Below, piece by piece: positions 7,525 through 58,445 of a DNA stretch of 62,380 nucleotides; the first letter of the stretch is position 1, and each line of letters starts with the position of its first letter. A program made the translations under genes and the position numbers. This DNA is from a virus. Lineage: Duplodnaviria; Caudoviricetes. Below the pieces are notes generated by a model that made no database searches, was not told where the DNA came from, and saw nothing but the letters and a program-made list of their open reading frames with translations. Location of the stretch: positions 1 to 62,380 of IMG/VR virus record IMGVR_UViG_3300048589_000279. One strand, given 5' to 3'.

Positions 7525-7578
7525 GACGAACACCAAGGATCAGGCGCGCGAAGCGTCTCCTGTATCCGACTGTTCGGA
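7525..7578 (-). mobile_element. Short attC-like site K (54 bp)
   Basis: Minus strand: CCGAAC-agtcg-GAT a CAGG aga CGC ttc GCG cg CCTG ATC-cttggt-GTTCGTC; 5- and 6-nt spacers as in classical attC. Confidence 0.85.
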
Positions 7579-7589
7579 ATAATCCAGGA

Positions 7590-8806: not shown

Positions 8807-8955
8807 TTCTTCGCCTCATACGCCATCGAGTCCGGGATTGACGTGCCCACCGTCGCCCGGTGGCTCGGGCACAAGGATGGGGGAGTCCTGGCCATGCGCA
8901 CCTACGGGCCCTCCGGGACGATCACTCGCTGGCGAGCGCCGCCAAGTTCGGGTAA
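8793..8955 (+). pseudogene. C-terminal remnant of a tyrosine recombinase
   Basis: LRHFFASYAIESGIDVPTVARWLGHKDGGVLAMRTYG then a frameshift then LRDDHSLASAAKFG*; contains box II RH, LGH and the catalytic Tyr. Confidence 0.85.
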
Positions 8956-8959
8956 TGCG

Positions 8960-9703
8960 TCAGGAAAGTTCCCATTCAAAAGTGACCGACACGTTGGTGG
9001 TGGAACCGGTGTCAAACCAATCGGTTTCGTCGTATGTGATCGAGTTGGTGCCCATTTTGGCCCGCCACTGTGCGTTGTCCCATCCGCCGATGTTCTGGCC
9101 AACCACCGCGCCGCCGCCGCTGTCGAAATGACTCGGTGCGCTGATTTCCGTGCCCCAGCGGTCGGCGGGTGCGCGGAGGTATTCAGGATAACCCAATGAG
9201 GCGTTCCAAAAAGCCAAGCCGGTGGGAAACGATGAGATCATGATGTCGCCTGAATCATCATTTGCAGGGTCCGCATGACCGGTTTCGCTCCAGGTGCCAC
9301 AGATTTCCGCGGTGAAGCTTGCGTCATAAAAGAAGTCAATGATCTGCCAGCCAATCTTGGTTGGCACCTCGCTCAGTGTCCCCACACTGAAATAACCACT
9401 GGCGGGCGAAGTAAGCGTGTAATCTCCAACGTCAAAACCGTCATTTGCGGGACCGTTCCCAGCAGGAGCAGGGATGATCGATGTGCCAGATAGCTCCATC
9501 GGCACGCGATCCAGCGTCACTTCTTTCATGAAACTCATCGTTTCCGACCGAGTTATCCCGCTGCCATCGGTATGCGATCTCGACCCGGAAATGGTCAACT
9601 TGAGGCGGAGATGGCTGTAAAACGGCGGTCCCTCAAAGTATGGCCAAACATCTAGCAGTTTGGTTGGATTCAAAATCCCGGAATGGACGGTGCGAATGCT
9701 CAT
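8960..9703 (-). CDS. Tail-region structural protein (N-terminal part)
   Basis: ATGA overlap at 9700-9703; ends at the integrase remnant. Confidence 0.7.
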   Translation of the reverse strand: MSIRTVHSGILNPTKLLDVWPYFEGPPFYSHLRLKLTISGSRSHTDGSGITRSETMSFMKEVTLDRVPMELSGTSIIPAPAGNGPANDGFDVGDYTLTSPASGYFSVGTLSEVPTKIGWQIIDFFYDASFTAEICGTWSETGHADPANDDSGDIMISSFPTGLAFWNASLGYPEYLRAPADRWGTEISAPSHFDSGGGAVVGQNIGGWDNAQWRAKMGTNSITYDETDWFDTGSTTNVSVTFEWELS

Positions 9704-42200: not shown

Positions 42201-43092
42201 CCCATTGGACGATCGGCGTTCCTCCCTTGGTCAGCGGGGCGAACGTCTTGCGTTCGAACGTGAATCCCTTGTATTTCTCGCCGGTGTTGAACGCCTTGTA
42301 TTCCCGGGAGGCTTCCTTGAACTCCTGATCCACGGCATGCCACCTAGGCGCGAACGTGAGCTTTTGCTGATCGATCTGCGCCTTGCGCATCATCACCTCC
42401 TGGCCGCGCATCTTGAACTCCTCCGTCTTTTTCAGGTCGGTGACTACCTTCTTGTCCTCGCCAAGCGGCACCCGGTCATAAAGGCCGGTGACTTCGTTCT
42501 TCACCCGGGAGTAAATCTCGCCGGTTTGCGGATCGGTCTTGGTCGGCAACGGTTGCACCGACTCCTGGCCGCGGTCGTTGCGATACTTCTGCATCATCGC
42601 GTCTGGCTCTTTGGGTGCCAGTTCTCCCTCCTTCAACATCGTCGGGAAATCATGCAGCTTGCCCACCTGGCCTTGCACCAGTTGCGGGGATCCGATCGGA
42701 CCGGCATCGTATTTCAGGCTGCCGTCCGGGTGGCGAACCACGTCCGTCTTCCCGCTTTCCACGTCCACCGCGGTCTTCACGCCGGCGGCCGCGGCTTCCC
42801 GCACTGCGCGGCGCCGATCGGCTTCCGCAATGGCGGCCTGGCGCTTCTGCTCGCGTTCCTGCTCCTTGGCCATCGCCTCGGCTTCGCGTTCCTGATCCTC
42901 CGCGTTGCGCTGGTTCTGCTCCAACTGGTCGTCAATCATCCGCTGCCCGACTCGCTGCGCCCGCCAGTTGCTCGATGAACGGGCCAGAGTTTGCGCCCTC
43001 GGGTTCACCCCGGCGGTTCCCTGCCTCACTTTGTCGAGGTAGGATTGAACCTCGTCTTCCTGCGGACTCTTCCAGTTCTTGCGCGGTGCCAT
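24298..43092 (-). CDS. Giant polyvalent (DarB-like) virion/ejection protein, 6264 aa
   Basis: ParB-like VLDGGHR; zincin-like HEVGH and HELGH; EEIQSD domain; CxxC ribbon; adenine MTase FFPTP/VLEPSGG/NPPF; GNAT RGQGLG...FYKRFGF; HTH; LPD38-like C-terminus (VPFFNAGIQG, RIPRAFE). Confidence 0.9.
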   Translation of the reverse strand: MAPRKNWKSPQEDEVQSYLDKVRQGTAGVNPRAQTLARSSSNWRAQRVGQRMIDDQLEQNQRNAEDQEREAEAMAKEQEREQKRQAAIAEADRRRAVREAAAAGVKTAVDVESGKTDVVRHPDGSLKYDAGPIGSPQLVQGQVGKLHDFPTMLKEGELAPKEPDAMMQKYRNDRGQESVQPLPTKTDPQTGEIYSRVKNEVTGLYDRVPLGEDKKVVTDLKKTEEFKMRGQEVMMRKAQIDQQKLTFAPRWHAVDQEFKEASREYKAFNTGEKYKGFTFERKTFAPLTKGGTPIVQWVKRNKETGTESEATELEVATHGKALEAAKSRYVTARKKYDELRPQQEALNAADTQATMDGYKLTVDRTRHEQGLPEEDGGAADTMAAAETGTLNPEQEAAASYPLVYAPEVLDAAQARDGEMGPPSSAARPLIPQDDPAKVEAFRNAFVGIKDADSLTVGISGDGFTFIKGKNGNVGLIATDKNGLPFITVGYDKGGELRRAVDFTATTGAPIYLRDADGQRDTVAEAQYVASVFQAGQASPDDDMFRNRMRMLQATPDDIAKKVRDGTLSVQAGESLLKGIYKVSMAVPDPSTPQAFGQWLSKSDADTKHQWNTAKNQFEKNEVKAQFFREWADENEWKPGMDETLVEKMQAKVIPIPEKEFFDVADTVSAIVDAVTGLKTTPTRFRSAWAGPKRPDQYTPAEERSYAQADAYQQEMERKTAINQAAGESSSVGESFREAGPSLPFSLVTLAAYVTGKYTVGKYVTGPAGAATGSVVGSVFGPKGTAAGSAVGRTAGEELAGAAASGYAAYRMAGQSFMRDTWKDFEAEAMRTKGRPMNEAEKAEAYAILLPIAQDTGLWEAGPEAVGNAVMMGAGKFVFGSSTVKKFSKDAMKKLALKMGAAIGAAGVEVAGETATNIQQKAGQAKAEAILQGADPDQIESDWSLGGIKKSVKEVGPQTLAIVALMGGSVGGVKLAGKGINKAKEALKGTPAAPSMAGTTAPGGPPPPPPGSPPPGPGAPPPTGGGPTAGPAPGPTPGPSTGPAPGAGPTPGPTAGRGPRPGPTAGSSTGPRPGPAAGRATAPPPPPGPSGAGKQRGPKPPARFTSEQQFQNFMDQAAARGDAESARDARAMVNGAKNQKWYSAWLKKALKSTDQKTVDFAQSTFHARNNEQHDAYTAEQQARRDAEGLGKDPSQNVPGRDQGQPGRSGVSGNDPGAPAGRDDAGKPPGRDGRVTPEDIPGALTPEQVEVVDTTDPAKVAAMPPADYDLWMRENIIMDGTAPVEAIDHLPVIATALSAARDRGDTATAAILEARLAQSEKPIDPSNPDARRFNKSLTKIRARFGLTAAPAAPSSQETAPQSNEPYPQGREETRPPAQDPQSPPAETGAPGQPVRDGTGQGGTVAPGGGAPAPEEVAKPQQITAKQARLMLKPSEKEGGVDPRTRIKDGKEYVAETLPLSAITANMEGERYDSTVRDPLFRQYAERGGEFPPILVTSKPNDQGTFSVLDGGHRVSAARLRGDQSIRVIREKPTAPTGQSAPEVEKPAKPPTADKAPNPVKVAKAVQAAVESTVARLKGKVKVADGKQASGGAWMSLDGTLTISPKDIAREIKVNGWDEAKAIEVLTDLAISHEVGHFAQVELKRQEWEAIEGKKPPFAVWFNQFNAGQYAEMGGEGSGVDQAAAAIYDPTPGSPQWQALSPGQKGAEIFRMALNAKLNGETNELVREMARKGWTDAFKNMIQAAINYLKSILKDLPPSAKKHLDELEAFYKEITGKGDTKPETKPKEPAAKPETLGDIAETKPETKDRTGEKVSFTHLGTKDTGTVTDAAPDAKGRLMVRSDSLGTLLRKSPDELSPASKAAAQSKPEEASAPDAGENTPKTLNAASLNPEWLKTHRDEWIAMYAKELPYEEDYRLVDLGNGEFNIKQKLGSQWITPYSPTKDIRTLLLRGGMAETLKRAEMARIDFSSKPSQPAGEKPSPKKSRVTDTPARREAFRLLRSGDLATIDKIMGGRIQAPPTGMLKIIKGRMEEGRATQAQRELWDKWEKAGFNAYLPKTAFGTDFNGKVAQELHGMLFSQYNENTDLDDWAGLLGDKVTNDEAMIAVMAELDQVAKGKISKENDPRNPNRERTDAEIQAEEFKRANDFDFGTEEIKAGDLVEGSTITIDGEEFQVQSVEKGGQVVLQDGARFGRQVLDSGDVVYVEQPDEFEPIISTIVDAAIARGYDSVDELKEADPETYAQLLEQYGPEPEGDLGDGPAGEVPSGREAPEGGAGRGQDAAPRGNEVGGWQTRNSNLADDYKAAVQELAPLEKALQEAAAAADVSLPPGFKTIPYNEGGNDWVALQDDMGNDIRFPLTPSEASDEAWKLYDEQSGGMNVASRYRAYNNLKADPRLAELRQARDSALEAWNANGKHPLTDQFNQERSDREAAEQKQRETTAKARRTREAKKAAPAGQPVSVQDIDSAINRREQDILFVKKGQYHTPGLRPGDQEGSGRFAYMVEKGDATVAEWDKWVEQIRKENRFSDPGAPVITPEGKAAAAPGKEPNAAPAPSKGMSVEESKAYLEQRQKENILGYSPDEIMAMQQGQRVNRPVSKMDVRNTNAKELFADDGGFNLTGDKTTDGDKVAAARKAKEEAQAAMDAAQGDMFAARDSKPAETVLTQEEQDLKELEGLFSSASRSRDSGMDDLFGDNQKPTEEIKALKIQGTKSAFGAYKTLTAKRNAGKTLTAEEEQTLLEAETALGQKMAFDMAAENLAAKDKPLVEQALKEAVKPAPVLNPKITQQSLFMGEPENRGGQGSLFSSASRENPPFYSQLSRTLEAKMPKSAPVGQVLAIAKGGSKAEEFKWSGIEQAAQSLAKDGKVDKAELLEWLANEGAVRFEEVTLDPPVNNQRWSDLLDKRDAGKLTKLEAEELKRLSDQGGHPDSKFSQYTLPGGENYREVVLAMPVQTERFKNDLLRRKFKETLEADEVANYHDIAEADFLSLPKEKQFQLWKDAFGDVAIEMDALYESPERNDSYTSSHFPDVPNYVAHMRLNERDGGLFIEEIQSDRHQAGRKSGYVESATQTEGELPPGYAIREAESGLHALYHQSHGFESFVGSFRDRNQAVQKAFSDVNSSKVADAPFRTTWPLALFKRALRDAVASGKDWIGWTVGETQNDRFDLGRQVDSLNYGGSVEDGWTIQGIKDGEIITETDSTDAKLEDTVGKDVAARIRQGVGSIGNGMGSLEGVDLKVGGSGMKGFYDTMLPKEIGKYVKQWGGVVQLSKIGKPKEGTGKLTREELSQARQDAKRLIRGDMDLEEFHDEWGQTSLTYDDIPGNDPGRLSQFVTQIVDVLRAKRENDAGGIFPAWVIQITPSMKAGVEAGQALFSSASPDPNAQYSLPIKPTGLPKLMPILQSVIEKGEVKTPEDMAKFLEPIGLQPISQAVWGILEAMQGRAAEKVDWAKLYAPATDNQSLTVQPAAPVEQETPAAITQAEAAAKITKEQAKAIIAESESLKDRPIRTYEQAVAANQIHMGTRIPEWEALPFNGQTDPESGKPLQDISGLRDMKHAPTLFPTGSVIGNCEWCGKQPVKNFYHIKHGGKNWTMLVGSECISHFADITGEQMGAEARENSAKATLQSIEDARRDLAKEFRNTVDVGYGRTEQKWSSYESEDIYKALKEAAGKTTGESGRAALSRWLGGNLEAAQKALADYSDLMSKPETAKRKITRREALIRKLELDLTRPSAAKEPQYRLDQWQRLIDEAKSEIAAIKGETPAETPPVEKPEAAKPAPTRKALEEGLRQARAEQAKNPSEDKAAAIREAESLLAMADQVRKDRESAKPSEQPSDLESKPSDLAPKKSTVEPITDLLSLRKFFTNIQDGDVTADQIKAGWETFKAIEPAIHKEIAKMTMKELERFQGMRKPDNKADAVRSAMHALEGQFNPGSMLSYGGSVLSASKPGAMENSRRAAMDKAVATWTDEIIQKQAQERRDAKAARSKALENPETLDEWKQFVNRKGVTGLTGEEVAAFKAIKSDYARHDAIMARGESRLTPEQLAAYDNVRGIDRKAQEQAQAERKATVRGVKADTDTEIIETKHTKTGVPLFVVKLADRVEREVYNSLNAAAKKLGGYYSSYRVGGAVPGFQFKDRATAEQFQAITKGETVDRTEAVQERRAEKKNAAAERLSAAADRMDQAADTSLNRDRRENTPKRAKEAVHAEAAARGVKAMAETMRNLANAIESGEATHLDGVSTKTHVETLQSLSESAKRDAMRAEGLSYGEEQTRAELAPTLEQMDKAEWPYPFMDHSSMLEMVERGRTTPGAKLLAERVAKIRLYDPKKNGNGGYLTHESDIENVRELAKKTRDWKGKPVWDGIKWKFESHERLHAMGIWDIAQLRASLREFLQFRGNKTKADPIKAMERDLIGKNIPGFFPTPQTVIEDMLDIAGDLSGKHVLEPSGGKADIADAAKAAGAIVDVAETQSTLRDIISAKGHLLIGRDFMDMDPKTRGFTYGDIYMERATGKKGILRGLGEMGSERVRLEKEDGEVIGYFNLSELQGFEKRGAASGYDVVLMNPPFEDGQDMEHVQHAYDFLKPGGKLVAIMSESPFFSSTKKAQAFRDWLEAQGGTSEKLPEGSFKSAFRSTGVNTRMVVIEKPATTLQASASWPRNLYDYTYRTEANKGDVQHIVRAYNERTGMKEDRTFDTYAEAKEEMERLDDLAKPALFSSSSNYEDTMKPFRDKWEARGVENYVSENARTGNITLHQIKVPKSDRGQGLGSEFMQELTDYADSKNAAIVLSPSIDFGASSVNRLKDFYKRFGFVENKGRNKDYRISETMIRRPKSGGLFSSASPAEDARYLELAKLEEESRRDPLETPRRNHMIQAGLFDEVLDSVRQGREPKLRIGDYTEGKGSTYSEWKDNTYEDEQTYKFRITDHDRQLSSITNHKRPDFTISDGRSDVSESNGDWIDAIDWLQGRADNFTAPERIQKIIDRRGKIAELKRQVNDQNRAEESKKTNYSQIGQATQEGAAIYKKAMDLAAELQSSMGTGKYSSEERKKMNKRKIAMFNRIEEIGKSEASKNDRLYSSASMPSQDAKYLELAKDPESDSILFSSASRASDLPGDDHPVWASLPPEMRGVFRDYAAGKSMPEIAKARKLSDRAVFNIVTQMKARFAKNGVPDPTPPVSGTRPAGAAPKPASKAPETKDAGAARGGAATRMPVSPDPIGNIKKGISAPKVIKTMQGVLESIGHGVPIRVGNLKGRNSLGEYYTREHLARIKIANDIPTAAHELGHALQKGLFGNAATAFRTAGVPANAIAEMEAVGRALYGATVPTGGYVSEGFGEWFSVLVYGGNTESRAAAPRFHDWFKAQVEAVNPKLAKSIAKAQAASLTWRNQGDLERARQSVYRRPGRIVELGQKLASLDYMNDWVDTNAPIDRFVAEAIEKGRRAIPARENPALAATALRMTSTARAEFMVKSAMIDFAGNPLPGDDGRSLTEILARVRGKKTDFLIYMWAKRAVAMWNDPNGARNPGLSENDAIGIIAKIETPIFEQTAAAVSRWNDLVLDYAAAASEDYRATVQRIRAVDPGFYIPLFREFEAFDAAAKGGSSSVASGKLLDRLRGSGRRIKDPFSGMISQAADIVARAHQKRVLDQIFKIAENVPDMGNLVAEISPKMVPAAQRALGELIEEINRKLFKAGIDEIELTPEQEAMMQEIATFFAPSYDVKNGERPILAVFRGGRMRLYDVDPGLYETLSGMNAYRLAPLIDMTIGLTNRTFRIGTTGLRASFSLVTNPLRDFSTLHFNSRASANTAELFLTWMGELSKAFIYSVTGGAVRPKTIEVLERLGGKMATPLGQDMRPTERASRRLFEKTGWKIVDVRNWADYLRDLLQFPELASRATEMKLVGKDLGWKPGDAMDEETSLLLLQALKQVTTDFTAAGRYGRVANQLVPFFNAGIQGPRAHVRAFKNSYVRFISRGLGHAIVALIAWWFAKDSDWWKEMSTKMKFGFTFIPFEHNGKKELIRIPRAFEADGLFMSGTVALADAWYQEDPKQATEWMQEWFKRMIPSAMPAVADTVTEQLANRKFFFDMPIVPRGMEEMAREEQIGPYTSQVAAKLGQMTGMSPLRIDHAINGTFGGAGTDFVQLFGKPEEINRERELVDLPVLGTLFVRGGQSTMNSVSVDNLYDALDESTKLQKSRRRQENPSQRQARLMLEDAQKAIVAISKITKMEFTTNNRRELEELKTSIAREAVAAFRAERIERGRFETIRKNAERELEAREKAPKP

Positions 43093-47326: not shown

Positions 47327-47346
47327 GTTATAACTCCTTGTTCCAC
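47327..47346 (+). mobile_element. Candidate array entry site (attI-like simple site)
   Basis: GTTATAAC-tcctt-GTTCCAC; GTTCCACC is complementary to GGTGGAAC at R'' of site A. Confidence 0.5.
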
Positions 47347-47382
47347 CAAAGAGGGATCGGACCTCTCCGGTGGTGTTTCGCG

Positions 47383-47781
47383 TCAGTCGAGGTTCAGCGA
47401 TTGTTTCGCCACGGATCGCCACGCATCGGCCTGCTTTTGCTTGTTCGGATCGGCGGCGAAGTCTGCCCACGCGGGGAGCGGATCGCCGTTGAACGCGACG
47501 CCACCAACGGCTTCGCAATAGACCGAGTAGAGCAGATCGGCGTGTTCATCGAGGTTGGGCTGTTCTTTCGAGGTTTGGATGAGCGCCAGCAGCGCGTCGC
47601 CAATCGGTTCGCCGTAGCCCCATGAGCCAGGCGATCCCATCGCTCTCTCGACAGGGATTCCCTCAATCACCGATCCCAAGACGCTGATGAGCGCGGTGGT
47701 GTGATGATCCAGTTCAGGGTTGTTTTCGGCGGCGTGGTTGACGATGGCGTTGCGGAGGTCTCGTTGTTGTTGTGTTATCAT
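47383..47781 (-). CDS. Hypothetical protein (cassette 1)
   Basis: AMGSPGSWGY and YCEAVGGVAFNGDPLPAW motifs. Confidence 0.7.
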   Translation of the reverse strand: MITQQQRDLRNAIVNHAAENNPELDHHTTALISVLGSVIEGIPVERAMGSPGSWGYGEPIGDALLALIQTSKEQPNLDEHADLLYSVYCEAVGGVAFNGDPLPAWADFAADPNKQKQADAWRSVAKQSLNLD

Positions 47782-47812
47782 ATTTCGTTTGGTTTGGGGT
47801 GATTCGGAAGAG

Positions 47813-47909
47813 GTGGAACAAGACGCCGATCCCAACAGAGATGGCGTCCGAGTTCATTTAGGTAGCGGAGTCTTGCCCGCCATCTCTGTGGGATGGCTCA
47901 GCGTTCTGT
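47813..47909 (+). mobile_element. attC-like site A
   Basis: GAAC-aagac-GCC g ATCCC a ACAGAGATGGCG ... CGCCATCTCTGT GGGAT GGC-tcagc-GTTC. Confidence 0.9.
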
Positions 47910-48607
47910 GTATGAAATGGGAGCACGTCCTGCGCGAGACGAGCGGCGGCGATTTCGCAATAGCGTTCCTCCCGCTCAATCAGCACGGCACGCTTCCCGA
48001 GATTCTTCGCGGCGTGTCCTGTGGTGCCAGATCCCGCCCATGGGTCGAGGATGGTTTCCACGTTCCCCGCTTGCTGAATGCACCATTGCATCAGCCCCAG
48101 CGGCTTTTGCGTCGGATGCTGTGGGTTGCTGTCTGAGCGGCAGCGATGGTGCTTCGCTGGTCCTGGGATATTCGTGAAGGCGATTTCCGCGCTGCTTCGC
48201 GTTTCCAAGTGCTCCACATGCGGCTTTTGCCACATCAGGAACTTTTTGTGAGGCGGCAGCAGATTGCACAGGTAGTTCATCCCCCAGATGATTTGCAGGT
48301 TGGCCTTTTCCATTGCGGCGGCAATGGCTTCCCCGTCGATTTTTTCATCATCCCAGTTCCCTTTTCTTGCCATGCCGTATCGGCGCGTCGTCCTTGATCC
48401 GTCGAGTGCATTCATGCCATACGGAGGGTCGGTGAGCAGCAGGTCGAAGCGTTCCAGCATCGGCATGATTTCCCGACAGTCGCCGTGATAGATCGTCACG
48501 TATTCGTCGCGGTAGAACGGCACCGGCAACACAGAACAAGGCATCGCACCCAATGACTGCCCGGCGGCAGTTTGGGGCGAGGATGGAGCGTCAGGGCGGG
48601 CAGTCAT
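47858..48607 (-). CDS. N4-C/N6-A DNA methyltransferase, beta class (cassette 2)
   Basis: YHGDC, LTDPPY, HPTQKP, ILDPWAGSGTT. Confidence 0.93.
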   Translation of the reverse strand: MTARPDAPSSPQTAAGQSLGAMPCSVLPVPFYRDEYVTIYHGDCREIMPMLERFDLLLTDPPYGMNALDGSRTTRRYGMARKGNWDDEKIDGEAIAAAMEKANLQIIWGMNYLCNLLPPHKKFLMWQKPHVEHLETRSSAEIAFTNIPGPAKHHRCRSDSNPQHPTQKPLGLMQWCIQQAGNVETILDPWAGSGTTGHAAKNLGKRAVLIEREERYCEIAAARLAQDVLPFHTQNAEPSHRDGGQDSAT

Positions 48608-48628
48608 GGGTGGATTTTGTCGTTCATC
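48531..48628 (+). mobile_element. attC-like site B
   Basis: GAAC-aaggc-ATC g CACCC a ATGACTGCCCG ... CGGGCAGTCAT GGGTG GAT-tttgtc-GTTC. Confidence 0.9.
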
Positions 48629-48936
48629 CAAAAATCCTGTTGCCCACTGGCCGCGTGGATTCGCTCCTTGCGGCGGCGTTGGCGATCTTTCGCGTCGTGC
48701 CGGTTGTGGCAGCGTTGGCATAGTGCGGCGAGGTTTAGGAGATTCGACGCTTCGGGGCGGTCATCGAAGACATGCGCCACCGTCAGCACCACTTTCGATC
48801 CTGTCACCGGATGCGGCTGGTAGTTCTCGCATCCGCACCACTCGCAATGATTCTTGGCGCGGTAGAAGCGCACGAAGCGACTCCGAAGTTTCCAGTCTTT
48901 CGGGTATCGGTGTTTATTTTCTGCGAGGATCGGCAT
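48604..48936 (-). CDS. HNH endonuclease-like protein (cassette 3)
   Basis: CEWCG...LTVAH...NLAALCQRCHNRHD. Confidence 0.9.
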   Translation of the reverse strand: MPILAENKHRYPKDWKLRSRFVRFYRAKNHCEWCGCENYQPHPVTGSKVVLTVAHVFDDRPEASNLLNLAALCQRCHNRHDAKDRQRRRKERIHAASGQQDFWMNDKIHP

Positions 48937-48955
48937 CGGAGGTAATTCGGAAGAG

Positions 48956-49042
48956 GATGAACAAGGCGTGAGATGCGACGGCTATAAGCCGTCTTGTTGA
49001 GGCGGAGCGCAGCGATGCCGCGCATCCACATCGGCGTTCGGC
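48956..49042 (+). mobile_element. attC-like site C
   Basis: GAAC-aaggc-GTG a GATGCG a CGGC ... GCCG CGCATC CAC-atcggc-GTTC. Confidence 0.9.
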
Positions 49043-49308
49043 TGACGAATGCGGAGATACCATGTCTCAGGTGTCCAGACGTGTCCGCAGTCGGTGCAAC
49101 GGTCCATGTGCTGGAACTCGGCTCCTGCCCGTTCGCGCCCGTGTTTCCCGCATTCGGGGCAGTGTCTTCCGGCTGGCCACCAGTCAATGATCCAGCCCGA
49201 TTCGGCAGTGATCTTTTCCGTGATCGACGCAAGCCGAACAAGACGCAGCACAGAACCGCTGACCGCGGCGTTGTCCTGCGTGCTAGCAATGTCTGATTCC
49301 GCTGTCAT
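48982..49308 (-). CDS. Zn-ribbon protein (cassette 4)
   Basis: CPECG...CTDCGHVW. Confidence 0.7.
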   Translation of the reverse strand: MTAESDIASTQDNAAVSGSVLRLVRLASITEKITAESGWIIDWWPAGRHCPECGKHGRERAGAEFQHMDRCTDCGHVWTPETWYLRIRQPNADVDARHRCAPPQQDGL

Positions 49309-49332
49309 CGGTCCGTGTGCTCTGCGTTCGGC
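49233..49332 (+). mobile_element. attC-like site D
   Basis: GCCGAAC-aagac-GCAGCACAGAACCG ... CGGTCCGTGTGC-tctgc-GTTCGGC. Confidence 0.8.
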
Positions 49333-49724
49333 TCAAAGAATCCGCAGTCCTTTCCGCTATCCAACCAGATTGGCTGGCGCTCTTCGCGGAGCATCACGCA
49401 GGCGGGGGCTTTCCATTCCGGCAGTGGGTGCAGGCAGCGGCCCGAGACAGACGGGCGTGGGAGTCCGTTGAAGTCGGCGTGCTTGCAGTCGCCACAGGTG
49501 CCGCAGACGCGGGGAGATTCATCGTTCCTCCAGATGAGCTTGGCGAGAGCGTCGCACAATTCCCCGGTGTCTTTTGTGTCGAGATAGGCGACTTGACCGT
49601 TTGAGTGATGGATCGCCAGCCCAGCCGCCTCGTTGATGAAGTTGGCGCTCAGTGGCGTAGTGGGCAAAGCCGAACAAGACGTGGCTGCGGCAACCGGCGT
49701 TTCGCTTTCCAATTTCTTACTCAT
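49305..49724 (-). CDS. Cys-rich hypothetical protein (cassette 5)
   Basis: CGTCGDCKH...GRC...DCGFFEP. Confidence 0.7.
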   Translation of the reverse strand: MSKKLESETPVAAATSCSALPTTPLSANFINEAAGLAIHHSNGQVAYLDTKDTGELCDALAKLIWRNDESPRVCGTCGDCKHADFNGLPRPSVSGRCLHPLPEWKAPACVMLREERQPIWLDSGKDCGFFEPNAEHTDR

Positions 49725-49768
49725 GATCGTTCCTTTCGCTGCCGGTGGCAGCACTTGTTTCGTTCGGG
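49669..49768 (+). mobile_element. attC-like site E
   Basis: CCGAAC-aagac-GTG g CTGC..ACCGGC ... GCCGGT g GCAG CAC-ttgtttc-GTTCGG. Confidence 0.8.
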
Positions 49769-50328
49769 GGACAAAGTTTCACGCCCTCCAACGGGCATTT
49801 CAGAAGCGTTTCCTTGGCGCGGTCGCCATAGCCGATCAGCACGCTGGGAGAGGTTGCGCACGATCCGCCGCCCGTCCGCTGGAACTTTCCGCCCCGCGTG
49901 TCGTGGAAGCGGACGCGCCCCGATAGGAAGAGCATGGCGGCAGCGGTCTTGCTGACGGACTGAAACCACTTGGTATCCGAGCGAGCGAACACAAGCGCGA
50001 TGCCGTCGCCGTGGAGCGCAAGTCGCTCCATCCATTCCGCGATTTGCGAGCCGTAGGGCGGATTTAGCCACACATGCCCGGACCATTCGCGGGTGAGTCC
50101 ATCGTCCAGCACCGTGAAGCCCCTAGCGGCGGTTTCCCACGGCTGGTGCAGCGACATGCACGGGTCGAGATCGAACGGCCCGAGAGCGTCGAGGATGTGG
50201 CGCGGCGTGATCCAGTCGTGGGTCTGCGCCGTCGTCCGCTCATGCCCGTGGAAGCCGCCCGAACAAGGCAGCGCATGGAACGCCGGGGAAGTCGGTTCTT
50301 GAATCATAGTCTTGGGGTCGGCGTCCAT
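49717..50328 (-). CDS. Phage N6-adenine (Dam-family) methyltransferase (cassette 6)
   Basis: DWITP, FDLDPC, DDGL..EW...VWLNPPY, LVFARSDTKWF, GRVRF. Confidence 0.92.
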   Translation of the reverse strand: MDADPKTMIQEPTSPAFHALPCSGGFHGHERTTAQTHDWITPRHILDALGPFDLDPCMSLHQPWETAARGFTVLDDGLTREWSGHVWLNPPYGSQIAEWMERLALHGDGIALVFARSDTKWFQSVSKTAAAMLFLSGRVRFHDTRGGKFQRTGGGSCATSPSVLIGYGDRAKETLLKCPLEGVKLCPPNETSAATGSERNDHE

Positions 50329-50345
50329 GGCTTTAGGCGTTCTCC
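50258..50345 (+). mobile_element. attC-like site F
   Basis: GAAC-aaggc-AGC g CATGG a ACGCCG ... CGGCGT CCATG GCT-ttaggc-GTTC. Confidence 0.9.
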
Positions 50346-50680
50346 TCAATATCCTCCGTGGGCAGAAGTGCCCGCGCATCGCAGGTTATGTCGTGAGCTT
50401 CCACCTTCCAGTCCCGTGGATCGCGGACTTTCAGGTCGCGAATACTCACGACCTCATGGTCGCTGATATCGATCCGGTCGCTGTAATGGTCCCATGAGTC
50501 TTCCCAGTCTTCGACGTGCTTCAGCGCATCTGCTTCGGAGGCGGCGAAGATGACGGCGTTGCGGCGGATCAAGACGCTCACCTCGAAAAGCCGAGGAGAA
50601 CAAGCCGTGTCTGGCGACCCGGCCTCGTCTCTTGTTGGTTCGGAGATTTGGCCCTCCGCTGGCACTGATTGGTTTTGCAT
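50333..50680 (-). CDS. Hypothetical protein (cassette 7)
   Basis: Starts inside site G and stops inside site F. Confidence 0.7.
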   Translation of the reverse strand: MQNQSVPAEGQISEPTRDEAGSPDTACSPRLFEVSVLIRRNAVIFAASEADALKHVEDWEDSWDHYSDRIDISDHEVVSIRDLKVRDPRDWKVEAHDITCDARALLPTEDIEENA

Positions 50681-50729
50681 AGATTTTAGGTGTTACGCTG
50701 GCCGGATCGCCAGCACTTAGACGTTGTGT
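50595..50729 (+). mobile_element. attC-like site G
   Basis: GAAC-aagcc-GTG t CTGGCGACCCGGCC ... GGCCGGATCGCCAG CAC-ttagac-GTTG. Confidence 0.88.
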
Positions 50730-51043
50730 GAAGAATATCCTCGAAGTAGTTTCCCCATGGCTTGGGCGATTGTGAGCGAGTCGAGCACGTAGATGGTCCA
50801 CTCTTCGCGCTCCGCCCTCATCCTTTCGCGTCGATATACAGCCTCTTCGCGAATGAATTCGGACGGCAGCGCGGTTGCATACTCGAACTCCATCACTGGG
50901 CGGTCCGCGCACACTTTCCAATATGGCTGACCGGGATCAGGGCGGCGTTGTCCATCGGCAAGCCCTCCGATGAAGAGCACACAACAAAACGTGAGACGCA
51001 ATCCGCTATCAGCGGCATTGTCAGCTTTTGGGGAATCAGACAT
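50717..51043 (-). CDS. Hypothetical protein (cassette 8)
   Basis: LFIGGLADGQRR motif; starts inside site H. Confidence 0.7.
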   Translation of the reverse strand: MSDSPKADNAADSGLRLTFCCVLFIGGLADGQRRPDPGQPYWKVCADRPVMEFEYATALPSEFIREEAVYRRERMRAEREEWTIYVLDSLTIAQAMGKLLRGYSSHNV

Positions 51044-51099
51044 CTTCGGGCTTCGTTGGGGTTTTCTCGTCGGCGGATGCGTCCACATCGGCGTTCGGA
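50979..51099 (+). mobile_element. attC-like site H
   Basis: CAAC-aaaac-GTG a GACGC a ATCCGC ... GCGGAT GCGTC CAC-atcggc-GTTC. Confidence 0.9.
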
Positions 51100-51350
51100 A
51101 GATCAACCAGCTCCACCTCGACGGTGCGGCATTCCTCTTCGGATTCGGCCATAGAGCAGATTGCTTGCATCGCATGCCACTGATCCACGTCCGTCCATTG
51201 CGCGATTTTCCCGCAGCCGTGGCGTTCTAGGCTGACCCACACGATTTTGCTGCCGGGATAGCAGAATCGGGTTCCAAGCGGAAGATCGAAAAACTTCCGA
51301 ACAAGGCGTGGCTGGAGCAACGCGGCTCCGGTGTGAGTTTGATTTTGCAT
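51036..51350 (-). CDS. Hypothetical protein (cassette 9)
   Basis: FFDLPLGTRFCY motif; starts in site I and stops in site H. Confidence 0.7.
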   Translation of the reverse strand: MQNQTHTGAALLQPRLVRKFFDLPLGTRFCYPGSKIVWVSLERHGCGKIAQWTDVDQWHAMQAICSMAESEEECRTVEVELVDLPNADVDASADEKTPTKPEDV

Positions 51351-51419
51351 GGTAGTTACTGAGTTTTGGGAGTTATCGGCGTAGCGCTCTCGCCGCGTGC
51401 CAGCACATCGACGTCCGCG
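51296..51419 (+). mobile_element. attC-like site I (terminal; R' is GTC rather than GTT)
   Basis: GAAC-aaggc-GTG g CTGG..ACGCGGC ... GCCGCGT g CCAG CAC-atcgac-GTCC. Confidence 0.8.
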
Positions 51420-51592
51420 GGAATCAGGCTGACCAGGAACTTCCCGCGGGTCATTTCTCCGCGGAGCGAGTCCACGGCCTCCAGCTTGTCAGGCAGCAGG
51501 GAACAGGTGACGACGGTTGCAGTGCGACCGGTGCTCGGTTTGACTCCGGCTCCGGGGCGTTTCCCCCCGCGGGTGGTCTTGGGCTTAGTCAT
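51356..51592 (-). CDS. Small DNA-binding-like protein (RGGKRPGAG motif)
   Basis: Basic GGxRxGAG motif followed by an RHH-like region; C-terminus in site I. Confidence 0.65.
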   Translation of the reverse strand: MTKPKTTRGGKRPGAGVKPSTGRTATVVTCSLLPDKLEAVDSLRGEMTRGKFLVSLIPADVDVLARGESATPITPKTQ

Positions 51593-52082: not shown

Positions 52083-52105
52083 ATTCGTTTGGTTTGGGGT
52101 GAGGG

Positions 52106-52315: not shown

Positions 52316-52409
52316 GGTCTTTTTTTTGTTTGGGGTGGGCCTCATTGCCTGCCGATGGAAAACGGATAGCGGTTCCGTTATTAACCGTCAAATGAATTCG
52401 TTATTATTT

Positions 52410-52826: not shown

Positions 52827-53180
52827 TCATTGGTCTGTTTCTGGTTTGGGGATTCCGGCCCGCATCTTGGCGAGCATCGGGATTACAACCGTCTCGTAGA
52901 GGTATTCACGACAGGCGGCAACGTGGCGACATTCTACACGCCCGGTCAATGGGTAGGGAATGAACGTGCCGTGACGCTTCCAGTTCGGATTTGCTCGGCA
53001 TGAAAAGTCATGGCAGGAACAGCTTCCGAGTCCTCCCCGGTCGGTCATATCGACCAAATACCATCCAATGTCGGCGGATCTGGATTCCACACGGTAGCGG
53101 AAAGCCGCTCCGACATCCTCGCTGACGTTGGGCATCTCCATCATTGCCCGTTGCTCCTTGGCTTTGGCTTCTTGGGTCAT
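52827..53180 (-). CDS. SWIM Zn-finger protein
   Basis: YRVESRS...YLVD...CSCHDF...CRHV. Confidence 0.8.
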   Translation of the reverse strand: MTQEAKAKEQRAMMEMPNVSEDVGAAFRYRVESRSADIGWYLVDMTDRGGLGSCSCHDFSCRANPNWKRHGTFIPYPLTGRVECRHVAACREYLYETVVIPMLAKMRAGIPKPETDQ

Positions 53181-53788
53181 GGCTTCGTTTTTCGTTGTTT
53201 TAGCGGGTAGTGGAAGCGCCACTTGGAAACACGGGGGATTCGTGTAACGTCGGCATCGGGGGGCATGTTCCCTTTGCGCCCATACTTCTTGCCCGTGCGG
53301 GCGTCCACGTAGTCGCAGCGCGGGCTTTTCCGCTCGTCGTCGGTCATCCCGTCATGCCGCCAGTTCGCGGCCTTGTAGATCGTCCCGGCGTGTCCTGCGG
53401 ACGGGTCCGCGTAGCTCAAAAGGTGTTCAACGTCCCGGTGCGTCCGTTGGATGTAGCGGATGCTTTGGCCGATCAACCACGTTTCCGCGTTGCGGGGGAT
53501 TTCGTCCAGTAGGTAAAGGCGGGCGAGTTCCCATGTCTTGCCGCCATACCGCTTGTCAGCTTCCCGTGGCGGGGCTGAGTAGATGATGCACCCCACCGGT
53601 TCGCCATTGGTTAGCATCATCAGGCACAGGAGCACTATTGCGGGACGTTTCCCAAGGTAATGACGGCAAATGAAGTCGTCTACGTTGGCGACGGAGCACG
53701 GCTGAATTTTGGAAATAGACCGCCACGATGAATCAAACTTCTCGGAAGTTGGTAATTCGGCAGAGAGTCCGGGAAGGTTTCCGTTCAT
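53177..53788 (-). CDS. mom: Mom-family adenine-modification protein (GNAT fold)
   Basis: RHYL, WELARLY...PRNAETWLIG, SYADPSAGHAGTIYKAANW. Confidence 0.85.
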   Translation of the reverse strand: MNGNLPGLSAELPTSEKFDSSWRSISKIQPCSVANVDDFICRHYLGKRPAIVLLCLMMLTNGEPVGCIIYSAPPREADKRYGGKTWELARLYLLDEIPRNAETWLIGQSIRYIQRTHRDVEHLLSYADPSAGHAGTIYKAANWRHDGMTDDERKSPRCDYVDARTGKKYGRKGNMPPDADVTRIPRVSKWRFHYPLKQRKTKP

Positions 53789-54174
53789 GGCTTTGAAAAC
53801 ATGGTCGCCATCGCTTCGAGTTCGTCCGCGATCTCGGAAAGCAGTTTCATCTTTACACACGGCCAGCCTTCGGGAACGTGGTCGATCTCCAATATGCGGA
53901 TTTCCCCCACCAGTTCCTTCCAGCGGGGCTTTGGCGGTGGCTTTGGGACTCTCTCCCGCTTCTTGCGCTCCTCGCCTTCCACCGGTGCCTTGCGTGCGAT
54001 CGGCGGGCCCTTCTGGCTGCCGGCCTCGATCTCCTCGGGACTCACCCAGACAATACCCCAATCGTCTCGAAGGGGTTTGACCTTGGCCATCCCCTGCCAA
54101 CGTTCAATCAAAGTGCCGGAGGCGCGGAGCTTGCGTCCTTCACGTCGATAGGAAATGAGCGGGGCGGTTTTCAT
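53785..54174 (-). CDS. Hypothetical protein
   Basis: ATGA-coupled to the mom-like gene. Confidence 0.6.
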   Translation of the reverse strand: MKTAPLISYRREGRKLRASGTLIERWQGMAKVKPLRDDWGIVWVSPEEIEAGSQKGPPIARKAPVEGEERKKRERVPKPPPKPRWKELVGEIRILEIDHVPEGWPCVKMKLLSEIADELEAMATMFSKP

Positions 54175-54356
54175 GGCTCGATCAGGTATTCGCACTCAAA
54201 GGCGATGATGGCAGGCGGCGAAATCATGGAAACCATTTCAGTCCGTGGCGCGGTTCTCCGCAGGCAGGTTTCGCATCCTTCACGCCAGCCTTCTTCTTCG
54301 CTGCCGGAGCCGTCGCAGCGGGCTACGTCGTTGGGGAGTGTGGTCATGGCGGTGGA

Positions 54357-54689
54357 TCAGAACGGAATAATCGAGTCCGGATCTTCGTCCAGTGCGTCGT
54401 TGGTAGCTGCAAGCGGTGGTGCCTGCTGGCGCTGGCGCTGCGGTGGCGCGGCTTTGGTGGTCTCGCCTTTCTGTGATCCCGGAACAATCGTTCCGTCGCC
54501 TATGAACGGGGTTTCCTCGCCGCGGCGGTCCTTGCCCAAGTCCTGCTTGATCCCACCGTTCTTGCCATACTGGTTGGGTTCGTCGTCATAGAAGTAAGTG
54601 AGGTCGGCATAGGTGCCTTGCTTGCCTTTGAAAAAGGCTGTCTTGTCGAGCTTGGTGACATCGATCTTGAGTCGAATGATCTGTTTCAT
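54357..54689 (-). CDS. Single-stranded DNA-binding-like protein
   Basis: KIDVTKLDK...GKQGTY...NQYGKNG; acidic tail ending IPF. Confidence 0.7.
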   Translation of the reverse strand: MKQIIRLKIDVTKLDKTAFFKGKQGTYADLTYFYDDEPNQYGKNGGIKQDLGKDRRGEETPFIGDGTIVPGSQKGETTKAAPPQRQRQQAPPLAATNDALDEDPDSIIPF

Positions 54690-54865
54690 GTTGTTTGTTG
54701 GTTCTGGAGAGTTTCAATCTTGGCACGGCATGCCTGGATGCAGGCCGTGTGCTCGGCTTCGAGGGCTTCATCCTCCGCCTCGTCCGGGGACTTCCAGTTC
54801 TTGCGGCGGGCCGCCTGGATCGTCTCGATGCAGGCAAGGAGTTGGTCGATTTGTTCGGCAATCAT
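54686..54865 (-). CDS. Small helical protein (59 aa, below the track cut-off)
   Basis: ATGA overlaps on both sides; MIAEQIDQLL...RRKNWKSPDEAEDE. Confidence 0.7.
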   Translation of the reverse strand: MIAEQIDQLLACIETIQAARRKNWKSPDEAEDEALEAEHTACIQACRAKIETLQNQQTT

Positions 54866-56112
54866 GGGTTTAGTACTTCTTCACAGGTTTGGATGAACTC
54901 GGCTGCAACTTGCGGGACGATGGCGTTTCCCGCGCCACGGAGCAAAGGAGGGCGGATACTCCTGCGTCGTGCCAAGCCTGACACCACGTATTGCCCATCA
55001 TTAGCCAAAGGGAAAAGGCCGGGTTCAACTGGAATTTGCCGGAGCTTTCCGTCTCGGCATTGGATGAGGGTTCCAGCCCACTCGTTTGAGCGGTCAAGGT
55101 GTCCGCTACTCCCCTGCTGTGTCTCATTCCGCAGCACTCCGCATCCTCCGCCCGTGCTGTCGCCCAGCCCGCCGGAGTCATTCCCGCTACAAGACCGCCC
55201 ATCAGCATCTCGCCCTTCCTCGCTCCGCCTCTGCTCGTCTGCCCGCCGGTCATCGTGTTCGGAGTTGGCCATAGCTCGCACAGGTGCGCAACCCTCGGCA
55301 GTTGATCCAGCCGCGTGCGTGTCGAGCCGTCCGGGTTGGTTCCCGTCTCCGACATCCCCGGCGTATCCTTCCAGTCCCGCGCCGAAGCCGTTGGCCAGCC
55401 GGCCATGATTCCCTCCACGCTCTGCGGAGTCAGGCGTTGCCGTTTCCCGCCGTGATCGTTCCCGCGGTTCTCGCTCATGTTTGGTGCCTGCGTCACTTGT
55501 GGAGTTGGCCATGGGGCCATCGAGGCTGCATCGTTCAAGGTCGTTCCGGTGTGTGCTCCGCGCGCCTTCCTTGCCTCGTCGCTCTCCGGTCCCCTGCATG
55601 AGTCCGTCTGCACTGGCGTGGGCCATCCAGTAAAGTCGCTGGCGCTGATGCGGCGCACCGACGCTGAATGCGCCCAATACAGCCGCCCCGACCGTGTAGC
55701 CTTCCGACTCCATTTCTGTTGATACAACATCGAGCCAGTCGAATCCAATCGCTGCCGCAACCTGTTCCCCAAAGACTCGCTCAGGGCGTTTGACTTGGAC
55801 AAGGCGACGGAACACAGGCCAGAGGTTGCGTTCATCTGCCGCGCCTTCCTGCTTTCCGCTGGCGGAATAGGGTTGGCAGGGCAAAGAGGCTGTCCAAACA
55901 GGTCGAGACTCAGGCCAGCCGGCGAGTTTGAGAGCAAGGGGCCAGAGTCCAATTCCGGCGAAGAAGTGGCATTGTGTGAATCCGTCGAGTTCATGGGGTT
56001 GTATTTCGGTGATGGAACGATCATCGACCACACCGGCCGGGATCAGGTTGCGGGCGATCAACTCACGCAGCCATGCGGCGGCATGCGGATCGTATTCGTT
56101 GTAGTAGTTCAC
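54862..56112 (-). CDS. C5-cytosine DNA methyltransferase, main (alpha) frame
   Basis: HFFAGIG, LPCQPYS, FGEQV, PHQRQRLY, LRGAGNAIVPQVA. Confidence 0.9.
   Translation of the reverse strand: MNYYNEYDPHAAAWLRELIARNLIPAGVVDDRSITEIQPHELDGFTQCHFFAGIGLWPLALKLAGWPESRPVWTASLPCQPYSASGKQEGAADERNLWPVFRRLVQVKRPERVFGEQVAAAIGFDWLDVVSTEMESEGYTVGAAVLGAFSVGAPHQRQRLYWMAHASADGLMQGTGERRGKEGARSTHRNDLERCSLDGPMANSTSDAGTKHEREPRERSRRETATPDSAERGGNHGRLANGFGAGLEGYAGDVGDGNQPGRLDTHAAGSTAEGCAPVRAMANSEHDDRRADEQRRSEEGRDADGRSCSGNDSGGLGDSTGGGCGVLRNETQQGSSGHLDRSNEWAGTLIQCRDGKLRQIPVEPGLFPLANDGQYVVSGLARRRSIRPPLLRGAGNAIVPQVAAEFIQTCEEVLNP
54870..55994 (-). CDS. Nested alternative-frame polypeptide with WPTP repeats (MTase beta-like; start uncertain)
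   Basis: Same-strand frame open for more than 1.1 kb; repeated WPT(P/A); motif-IX-like QLNPAFSLWLM. Confidence 0.65.
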   Translation of the reverse strand: MNSTDSHNATSSPELDSGPLLSNSPAGLSLDLFGQPLCPANPIPPAESRKARQMNATSGLCSVALSKSNALSESLGNRLRQRLDSTGSMLYQQKWSRKATRSGRLYWAHSASVRRISASDFTGWPTPVQTDSCRGPESDEARKARGAHTGTTLNDAASMAPWPTPQVTQAPNMSENRGNDHGGKRQRLTPQSVEGIMAGWPTASARDWKDTPGMSETGTNPDGSTRTRLDQLPRVAHLCELWPTPNTMTGGQTSRGGARKGEMLMGGLVAGMTPAGWATARAEDAECCGMRHSRGVADTLTAQTSGLEPSSNAETESSGKFQLNPAFSLWLMMGNTWCQAWHDAGVSALLCSVARETPSSRKLQPSSSKPVKKY

Positions 56113-57687: not shown

Positions 57688-58371
57688 TTATGTCCATGGC
57701 AGTTCGGTTTCAACGACTGCCTGGACGGGTTGAGGTTTGGCTTTGGGAACCGATGCGCTGGCGGGTGTTCCCATTCTTACTATTTCCGCGCTGCGATCTG
57801 ACGGGGCGAGGAATGAGAGCAAATCCGGGGTCGGAGTGCGACAACCTTTTGGCGTGTGCCACGGAACCCATTGGCCTTTCTCAAGTGCGGTGTCGCGGGA
57901 GATGCTTTCGCGGGATGTCGGATCCTTGCTTTCGGCGTAAATGTCAACGAAGCGTTGCCAAACTTCCCATTCGTCGTTCACTGGCAAGGCTACTGTGAAA
58001 GCGGGCCAAGATGCCGTTGCCGTCTCGCGTTTCGTGAAGTGGATCAGGACGAAGCAGGGGACTCCGAACTTGGAACGGGAAAGCATGTGCGAAACCTGTC
58101 GCGGCTTGATAAACTTCTTGTCGAGCGGGAATGAAGGATCTCCGCAAACCTTGGCTTCGATGTTGAATTGCCGTCCACCCATAAGACAACCCTCAAAGTC
58201 CGGGAGAGAGGGAACGAGTAGCGTCCGGCTTCCGCCATTGCTCTTGTCCGCGACTACCATGCCTTGAACGCCGTAGCGTCCCATCGTGAGTAGTCCGTTG
58301 CTTTCCTCCCGCTTTGCAGCGGTCATCAGCAGCGTTTCAAAATCCTTTCCTTTGAGGGTTGAAGGGGTCAT
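57688..58371 (-). CDS. RecU-like Holliday junction resolvase
   Basis: GKDFE...PDFEG...FNIEAK...RQVSHM. Confidence 0.7.
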   Translation of the reverse strand: MTPSTLKGKDFETLLMTAAKREESNGLLTMGRYGVQGMVVADKSNGGSRTLLVPSLPDFEGCLMGGRQFNIEAKVCGDPSFPLDKKFIKPRQVSHMLSRSKFGVPCFVLIHFTKRETATASWPAFTVALPVNDEWEVWQRFVDIYAESKDPTSRESISRDTALEKGQWVPWHTPKGCRTPTPDLLSFLAPSDRSAEIVRMGTPASASVPKAKPQPVQAVVETELPWT

Positions 58372-58445
58372 GGGAAATTGGTGGTCCGGGGACCGCACGG
58401 AACCGCTCCGCGCTGCCGCCCCCGGACACTGGTTGGGGAATGGGG

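Follow-up and report, generated by a model that had tools for sequence, protein, structure and literature searches.

Can the genes of an integron cassette array run against their recombination sites and be translated straight through them? This question is raised by a stretch of hairpins and small genes around 47814-51419 in the virus record IMGVR_UViG_3300048589_000279 (Duplodnaviria; Caudoviricetes), which we analysed over its full length of 62,380 bases (hereafter the window). Integron cassettes are taught as promoterless genes that lie upstream of a non-coding hairpin and are oriented away from the integrase. The initial annotation of the window had proposed a different layout, in which the cassette genes lie antisense to their attC sites and read through them in a fixed frame. 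Our analysis makes it likely that the stretch is an integron cassette array of the CALIN type (cluster of attC sites lacking integron integrases), i.e., an array without its own integrase, residing inside a complete phage genome with its genes antisense to attC.

The window corresponds to the whole IMG/VR record, carries direct terminal repeats and is rated 100% complete. The phage genome codes for a small terminase (PF03592), a large terminase (phrog_2), DnaB, RecU, a Mom-family protein and a C5 methyltransferase. Searching all six frames of the whole genome with the Phage_integrase and integron-integrase models gave a 17-bit fragment at 8795-8881 as the sole match. As no intI or attI was found beside the array in the whole genome, we regard it as a CALIN and not as a complete integron. 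The 17-bit fragment is located on the plus strand within a 204-amino-acid open reading frame (ORF; 8585-9199), for which an NCBIfam search returned no match; it resembles the catalytic C-terminus of tyrosine recombinases or integron integrases and is no working integrase.

We located the sites with our own scanner (AACAA...CGT[TC] together with an energy threshold for the arm duplex). Nine sites (A-I) line up on the plus strand between 47814 and 51419, each composed of xxxGAAC-AAGRCG, a variable hairpin and CGTTCxxx: site A at 47814-47909, B at 48532-48628, C at 48957-49042, D at 49234-49332, E at 49670-49768, F at 50259-50345, G at 50596-50729, H at 50980-51099 and I at 51297-51419. The last of these has a degenerate R' that ends in GTC and is followed by phage backbone. 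Two further sites occur in mirror orientation, i.e., J (6665-6761; sense strand plus), a twin of site B, and K (7525-7581), a short attC-like hairpin of 57 nucleotides (nt). Both are embedded among plus-strand genes, as in the mirror arrangement reported for J and K. The ends AAC...GTT, the inverse core sites of an imperfect palindrome, are present in 10 of the 11 sites, the exception being site I. Moreover, the motif GAACAAGRCG (at most one mismatch) occurs 29 times where 11.1 occurrences are expected, a number that was reached by none of 100 shuffles. Upon single-strand folding, six of the 11 sites clearly beat their shuffled versions, with z-scores of -5.1 (A), -3.2 (B), -3.1 (D), -2.6 (G), -3.8 (J) and -2.5 (K). 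Sites C, E, F and H gave values of -0.5 to -1.5 and site I gave +2.1; we assign these five to attC because of their conserved ends and the R-box neighbour rule described below, not because of their folding. MAFFT alignments of the sites are not structural, and no covariance model was derived from them.

A signature of integron cassettes is seen in the pairing between neighbouring sites. The outer 4 nt of R' in one site pair with R'' of the following site at 32 of 32 positions, while 16 of 36 positions agree in pairs within the same site; the observed value was attained by just 7 of 100,000 permutations, and the complementarity between neighbours extends over 7-9 nt. Because pairing with the neighbour and not within the own site is the classical sign of cassettes, we place the crossover inside R', with the outer half of this box owned by the next cassette. 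The same limits are seen in other public sequences. A contig of 14,280 nt (run X1) contains window positions 49762-50341 with no differences and is unlike the window beyond both ends; this block is exactly cassette 6, from the G of R' in site E through the GTT of R' in site F. Other public contigs break at 47903, 48624, 49764 and 50341, all of which are R' cores. Furthermore, the gene of cassette 6 recurs in two metagenome contigs (L216 and L218) at 98% and 89% amino acid identity, and both diverge from the window exactly after AAC. The R boxes differ in a compensatory manner, reading GTTCGGG/CCCGAAC in the window and GTTGGGT/ACCCAAC in L216. Two viral contigs (L036 and L051) have a block of 94.5% identity in common, bounded by a GTTAGCC box at one end and by the GTTA of its own attC at the other; it holds an antisense Mom-like ORF that starts in the attC loop and ends at a TAA inside the R box. 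Among GenBank phages, matches were confined to the methyltransferase body and no record covered 80% of the query, and a tblastn search of the cassette proteins against the fetched loci yielded few matches. Judging from their sequence, the units of the window are genuine integron cassettes.

The array comprises nine cassettes and nine hairpins between a hairpin-less junction at 47340 and the phage backbone, which resumes at 51414. All cassettes are given on the plus strand and their genes (c1-c9) on the minus strand; each gene is followed by the cassette's own attC. The left junction (47334-47347, plus strand; crossover after G47340) is either attI-like or a secondary site; an 8-mer that begins at 47340 is exactly complementary to R'' in site A, and no hairpin site was found to the left of the junction. 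Cassette 1 (47341-47903) carries c1 (47383-47781; 132 amino acids) and site A; this gene lies behind a phage-type leader and stops inside its own cassette, and contigs of two runs (X2 and X8) break at the cassette end, 47903. Cassette 2 (47904-48622; site B), at which contigs break at 47903 and 48624, encodes an N6/N4 DNA methyltransferase (c2, 47858-48607; 249 amino acids; PF01555, 69.5 bits). Its start forms an ATGA overlap with the stop of c3 within the stem of site B, and its tail past Asn235 is encoded by site A. Cassette 3 (48623-49036; site C) encodes an HNH endonuclease (c3, 48604-48936; 110 amino acids; phrog_1571, E-value 1.4e-19) that starts 21 nt beyond its hairpin and stops in site B. 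Cassette 4 (49037-49326; site D) carries the gene of a zinc-ribbon-like protein (c4, 48982-49308; 108 amino acids), with an ATGA overlap between its start and the stop of c5. Cassette 5 (49327-49762; site E) contains c5 (49305-49724; 139 amino acids), whose start overlaps the c6 stop by 8 nt. Cassette 6 (49763-50339; site F) encodes a Dam-type N6-adenine methyltransferase (c6, 49717-50328; 203 amino acids; PF05869) that starts 4 nt past the c7 stop. Cassettes 7 (50340-50723; site G), 8 (50724-51093; site H) and 9 (51094-51413; site I) hold c7 (50333-50680; 115 amino acids), which starts in the loop 36 nt past the c8 stop, c8 (50717-51043; 108 amino acids), whose start overlaps the c9 stop by 8 nt, and c9 (51036-51350; 104 amino acids), respectively. 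No family match was obtained for c1, c5, c7, c8 and c9. The two DNA methyltransferases and the HNH nuclease fit a cargo with anti-restriction functions.

All nine array genes thus lie on the minus strand, which is the attC bottom strand, as the initial annotation had stated; the textbook layout, with the ORF on the top strand, is absent here. The AAC of the crossover (GAC in site I) is in codon phase at all ten sites that are entered by a long ORF (A-J; 98-285 codons open upstream), and no gene enters site K. The crossover peptides (QNAE, MNDK, PNAD, PNAE, PNET, ENA*, HNV*, PNAD, ADVD and SNDK) are exactly those listed beforehand. By our own arithmetic, the chance of ten in-phase sites out of ten, at one third each, is about 2e-5. 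The stop codon of the entering gene was found inside the site in all ten cases, in line with the proposal that stops lie in the neighbouring attC. From this stop to the next ATG, the spacing is -4 nt at B and D, -8 nt at E and H, +4 nt at F, +5 nt at I and +36 nt at G, so that six of the nine junctions fall within -8 to +5 nt, the geometry of a coupled operon, the remainder being +36, +45 and +76 nt. At site J, a GTGA overlap likewise links the stop of a 165-amino-acid gene (6192-6689) to the start of a PAPS-reductase gene (6686-7459). The idea that most genes start in their own attC agrees with the predicted starts of seven of nine (c2 and c4-c9), all listed N-termini (PCSVL, SCSAL, PCSGG, ACSPR, FCCVL, RLVRL and RLVRK) being present, and fails for c1 and c3. 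In c4 and c6, no in-frame start codon precedes the conserved domain other than those inside the hairpin: before residue 68 of c4 they occur only in site D, and c6 has none between site F and the Dam domain.

Several observations touch on these starts and on sites J and K. Within the loop of site A, a TAAATG opens a stub ORF of 47 amino acids (47714-47857, minus strand) that crosses the 3' arm and overlaps the c1 start in a different frame; it may encode a leader peptide or be what is left of a hairpin start module. Three gene starts have a 19-nt leader in common (47784-47802, 52084-52102 and 52320-52338), two of the copies being identical and the third 79% alike. Upstream of the ATG of c1, c3 and a 78-amino-acid backbone gene, the sense strand reads CCGAAT(C/T)ACC, with no Shine-Dalgarno sequence; this element may represent the phage's own translation-start or promoter-proximal element. 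Sites J and K flank the single PAPS-reductase gene. The inner R box of K and the outer R box of J are exactly complementary. No nearby partner exists for the outer box of K, which may thus be either an attC or an old gene end. When the outer flanks of J and K are joined, the 165-amino-acid upstream protein gains a tail of 17 residues that ends with a TAA at 7580.

The conserved protein cores respect the hairpin limits. Family matches begin at residue 29 in c2, 26 in c6 and 27 in the PAPS reductase at J (phrog_424), i.e., just after the part encoded by the hairpin, and the core of c2 spans residues 29-236, ending beside Asn235. Alignment of c6 with its ten best relatives revealed a block from GFHGHE to PPN that is up to 93-95% identical, whereas there is no relationship among the ~25 N-terminal residues or among the tails beyond the Asn. 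Among c2 and eleven relatives, N235 and C24 (the Cys from the conserved box) are invariant and the tails are again unrelated. Conservation that starts after the CS/LV residues and ends at the Asn, as predicted, was hence found in both cassettes that were aligned. In another protein (P0005), a c6-like Dam core with 95% identity continues into the catalytic C-terminus of a tyrosine recombinase and lacks the PPN end.

To assign the polarity, we turned to arrays that are linked to an integrase. A pattern scan for the same attC type in bacteria returned arrays mainly in metagenome-assembled genomes of Verrucomicrobiae and in Zavarzinella. In all five bacterial genomes with this attC type that were tested, an IntI scored above the curated TIGR02249 cut-off. 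The arrays adjoin intI in all three bacterial regions that were fetched, and the strand that begins with AAC-AAGGCG points away from intI, as does the canonical top strand. Since the matching strand reads away from intI in these three integrons, the phage genes are antisense to attC. Bacterial arrays of this type follow the textbook layout, with the longest open frame on the top strand in 22 of 26 and seven of nine cassettes, whereas in the window it lies on the bottom strand in seven of eight. Contig L216 carries two antisense coupled cassettes, one being c6-like (98% amino acid identity), and the c6-like gene lies 46 nt upstream of, and co-directional with, a gene for an IntI-like tyrosine recombinase (1097-2062, plus strand; best family TIGR02249, 198.8 bits). 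This geometry matches the expectation if the gene lies on the attC bottom strand. In addition, attC sites follow a bottom-strand rule in which extrahelical bases lie on the arm across from the bottom-strand AAC (Nivina 2016, PMC5027507). Our automatic arm count was noisy, as inner loops were counted, so we read the stem bases by eye; eight of the 11 sites fit the rule with the minus (sense) strand as bottom strand. The three integrase-linked arrays, the cassette direction in L216 and the bulges thus agree with the annotation of the plus strand as attC top strand. Among array-bearing viral records, intI was absent from the phage of the window and from all five others, three of which have terminal repeats.

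We also asked how the frame behaves in a larger set of sites. A pattern scan of viral contigs gave 69 loci, with 15 strand-arrays of at least two sites and 43 distinct sites, and we called a site entered if a bottom-strand open frame of at least 60 codons, as judged by our own scanner, runs into it. Such a frame exists at 35 of the 43 sites in the other viral arrays, and 33 of these 35 read AAC as a codon. At the 33 in-phase sites, 31 frames stop inside the site and two read through; 17 of these junctions have ATGA or GTGA overlaps, and eight more have an ATG at -8 to +12 nt. The ORFs that leave at the 3' GTT serve as an internal control and show no lock, with counts of 9, 10 and 16 in the three frames. 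In the bacterial arrays, 34 of 54 sites lack an entering frame; the other 20 include 10 that are in phase. The AAC frame is hence non-random among the other viral sites, as the fixed-frame claim implies. At the level of sequence, we consider the layout, the phase lock, the stop and start positions, the cassette limits and the polarity as demonstrated.

These features suggest how such an array may work. Along the plus strand, each cassette consists of the outer R' half, the gene and its own attC, with the gene on the attC bottom strand. By sequence, the gene usually starts in the loop or stem of its own attC, so that the 3' arm encodes ~20-27 N-terminal residues, followed by the body. In eight of the nine cassettes, the gene crosses AA|C as an Asn codon, and its stop is located in the next attC, within the 5' arm or the loop, where it overlaps or abuts the next start. 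Because the cut is crossed in one phase and every hairpin holds an in-phase stop beside its own start, any order of cassettes leaves the genes intact; reordering alters only the C-terminal tails of 1-19 residues. A cassette in circular form ends its gene on a stop of its own; in cassette 6, the junction reads ...PPN-A-stop, and the cassette's ATG follows 4 nt later. Expression of the array probably takes place within a long minus-strand phage operon, whose ribosomes would finish in each hairpin and begin again at the neighbouring ATG. At B and J, where the start lies within the stem, such a restart would require the stem to open. The cassettes are probably moved by integron integrases of the host, as the same attC type fills integrons of Verrucomicrobiae and of a planctomycete and the same cassette occurs beside an IntI-like gene.

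At the right end, the array abuts a 78-amino-acid backbone gene (51356-51592, minus strand), whose final 19 codons and stop come from site I, which indicates that the tail of this gene was replaced when the array inserted. Family searches with the gene gave no match. If the flanks 47340 and 51414 are joined, the gene ends with ...LIPAD-KEL-stop on the sense strand, followed by AAGGAG 11 nt before an ATG at 47322, which looks like the end of a gene and a ribosome-binding site as they stood before insertion. Relatives of the terminase (L072-L083; at most 63% identity) showed neither the array nor homologs of the small flanking genes in the flanks that were covered, and no relative with an empty site was among them. 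According to a preprint, IntI1 inserts at secondary sites (attG, consensus GWT). We considered the insertion site as an attG, but the rejoined TTG|TCC fits this consensus at just two of three positions, and we do not call it one.

Several points weigh against our interpretation. Four sites (C, E, F and H) fold no better than shuffled sequences and site I folds worse, so that only six of 11 pass. The fourth base of the R box is mostly C, giving GTTC where GTTR has been published, and for the bulges site D is reversed while C and E are ambiguous. Two genes, c1 and c3, start outside the hairpins at +76 and +45 nt past the upstream stop, and c2, c5, c7, c8 and c9 contain extra in-frame GTG or TTG codons just within the gene body. 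With 198.8 bits, the IntI-like protein of L216 falls short of the cut-off of 265. For the survey, we relied on a home-made scanner, an open-frame criterion and one search pattern; the surveyed sites are partly related by descent, so their counts are not independent events, and the bacterial arrays are likewise not frame-random, given their 10 of 20. Among the sequencing runs that contain the stretch, no RNA run is listed and all shares are at most 0.13. A further difficulty is that hairpins have been exchanged on their own between unrelated genes, for which integrase recombination restricted to the bottom strand has no explanation. At least nine other loci carry site F at 90-97.6% identity between flanking genes that are unrelated, the matching stretch reaching from GAAC to GTTCG, and in a contig of run X2 the c2 body and R'' are followed by a different hairpin. 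Furthermore, N-termini of the B and F types are found on c2-like methyltransferase bodies that are just ~60% identical. Cuts made solely at AA|C on the bottom strand do not part a gene from its own attC; either some cuts also fall in the other R box, or hairpins are moved by short-homology recombination at the conserved ends. On balance, we slightly favor the view that the cassettes form a distinct 'inverted' class common to phages and integrase-bearing elements, with the start in the loop, a universal phase and a stop that closes the gene upon circularisation. This would yield an operon that is always translatable, and the exchange of the hairpins themselves would imply recombination at both R boxes.

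Could the hairpins then mainly be RNA or translation elements, spread among phages by short-homology recombination and without IntI, their likeness to attC being ancestral or convergent? We consider this unlikely. It would readily accommodate an exchange bounded exactly by GAAC and GTTCG between unrelated genes, the recurrence of B- and F-type N-termini on distant methyltransferases, the absence of an integrase from six of six viral records and the presence of a RecU-like gene at 57688-58398. Yet whole cassettes bounded at the R' GTT are also common to different contigs, and the outer halves of the R boxes co-vary with the neighbour and change in a compensatory manner, for which an RNA coupler has no need. 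Moreover, the site type of the window fills integrons beside IntI, and a c6-type cassette adjoins the IntI-like gene of L216. A second explanation, which we regard as improbable, takes the layout as a passive by-product: ordinary cassettes would have been inserted against the direction of phage transcription, and their frames would borrow starts and stops with no selected design. Here, the minus-strand genes with family matches, whose cores fill the cassettes, are at odds with a by-product, as is the recurrence of the phase lock (33 of 35) and of the 17 ATGA/GTGA overlaps in unrelated arrays but not at the GTT side. The same antisense cassette also lies beside an IntI-like gene, and in bacterial arrays with this attC type the ORFs lie on the top strand (22 of 26 and seven of nine cassettes). 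In favor of a by-product, insertion at secondary sites is known for IntI1 (attG, consensus GWT, from the preprint) and two of the nine genes, c1 and c3, have ordinary leaders.

It is very improbable that the polarity is canonical after all, with the minus strand as top strand, a downstream hairpin belonging to each gene and a crossover in the other R box. The rule of complementary neighbours is symmetric and cannot separate the two polarities, and the bulge of site D lies on the other arm. But the blocks common to other contigs span the R' GTT, the gene and the start-bearing hairpin, the orientation relative to intI is consistent in three of three integrons and in L216, and the phase lock exists only at the 5' AAC; under a canonical polarity, furthermore, the hairpin at I would lack a cassette and the cassette at 47340 would lack a hairpin. 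That the frames are chance or shadow readings of GC-rich DNA, in which open frames of 60-100 codons are common (59% G+C), has a negligible probability in view of the motif excess and the permutation test, the family matches on the minus strand, the internal control at the GTT side and the Asn that is invariant in two protein alignments.

Hence, we retain the integron cassette array with antisense genes and relate it to known systems. PeSL (promoter early stem-loop) cassettes of T4-type phages are units of a promoter and a hairpin at gene junctions and are thought to shuffle small genes via homologous recombination. The window resembles them in its short conserved stem-loops at gene junctions; PeSL cassettes are not attC sites, and they are not known to have a phase lock. 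Phage CALINs and their cassettes have been described by Qi, Rajabal, Ghaly, Tetu and Gillings (2023, PMC9892861), including virulent phages, with methyltransferases as frequent cargo and with a demonstration that IntI1 recombines phage attC sites. The window corresponds to these CALINs in having an attC array without intI in a phage and methyltransferases among its cargo. The available part of that article gives no account of bottom-strand genes, starts within attC, a fixed crossover phase or stop/start overlaps, and the words 'antisense', 'opposite' and 'reverse' occur zero times in it. With canonical attC sites, those of the window have in common the imperfect R/L-box hairpin, the AAC/GTT core, extrahelical bases, an unpaired spacer and an outer R' that belongs to the next cassette (PMC5027507, PMC4889954). 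In canonical cassettes, as described in the same sources, a top-strand ORF that is transcribed from Pc precedes an attC that is largely non-coding; in the window the attC polarity within the array is normal, but the ORFs are inverted and attC is used as coding sequence.

Translational coupling at integron sites has been reported before. It involves ORF-11 of attI1 and, within attC, short ORFs that relieve the block by the stem-loop (Hanau-Bercot 2002 and Jacquier 2009, according to the review PMC8876359). As in these cases, the stop lies in or at the core near the next start, and termination-reinitiation past the attC stem-loop would apply to the window as well. In that review, ORF-11 and the in-attC ORFs are short top-strand leaders of class 1 integrons, whereas in the window the cassette genes themselves cross the sites systematically and on the other strand. 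Inverted integrons, from Treponema and others, have intI co-oriented with attC (Cury et al. 2016, PMC4889954) and are alike in the unusual orientation of a part. In contrast to them, the orientation of intI relative to attC is normal in the bacterial integrons (L209-L211) and in L216, and it is the cassette ORFs that are inverted here. Our literature search found no description of antisense or bottom-strand, phase-locked cassettes, although such arrays may be present, without comment, in the tables of Qi et al. Taken together, phage CALINs are already published, and the inverted, frame-locked layout was not found in print.

The surroundings of the array contain further features. Immediately upstream of it, at 53177-56112 on the minus strand, lie genes of the Mom family (PF25680) and of a C5 cytosine methyltransferase (PF00145), which together with the two methyltransferases of the cassettes give the phage a dense set of DNA-modification genes. 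A single ORF of 6,264 amino acids (24298-43092, minus strand) takes up 30% of the genome. Rfam at gathering thresholds yielded no match in the whole window and a scan for tRNAs found none. A scan for promoters and terminators returned zero promoter-like sites and six terminator-like sites, where 6.8 are expected, and it did not judge the hairpins terminator-like.

In the window and the other viral arrays, the coding strand is the strand that is recombined, the hairpin is coding sequence and the cut site lies in a fixed codon phase. Such a layout solves a general problem of modular gene exchange, the shuffling of genes without breaking translation, and does so without non-coding DNA, and it suits phage genomes with their limited size. 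It also ties accessory genes of phages, e.g., methyltransferases, to the integron gene pool of Verrucomicrobiota-like hosts, which places the phage on the opposite side to the anti-phage cassettes recently described in bacterial integrons. If true, the inverted class would provide phages with a plug-and-play operon of anti-restriction and other accessory genes.

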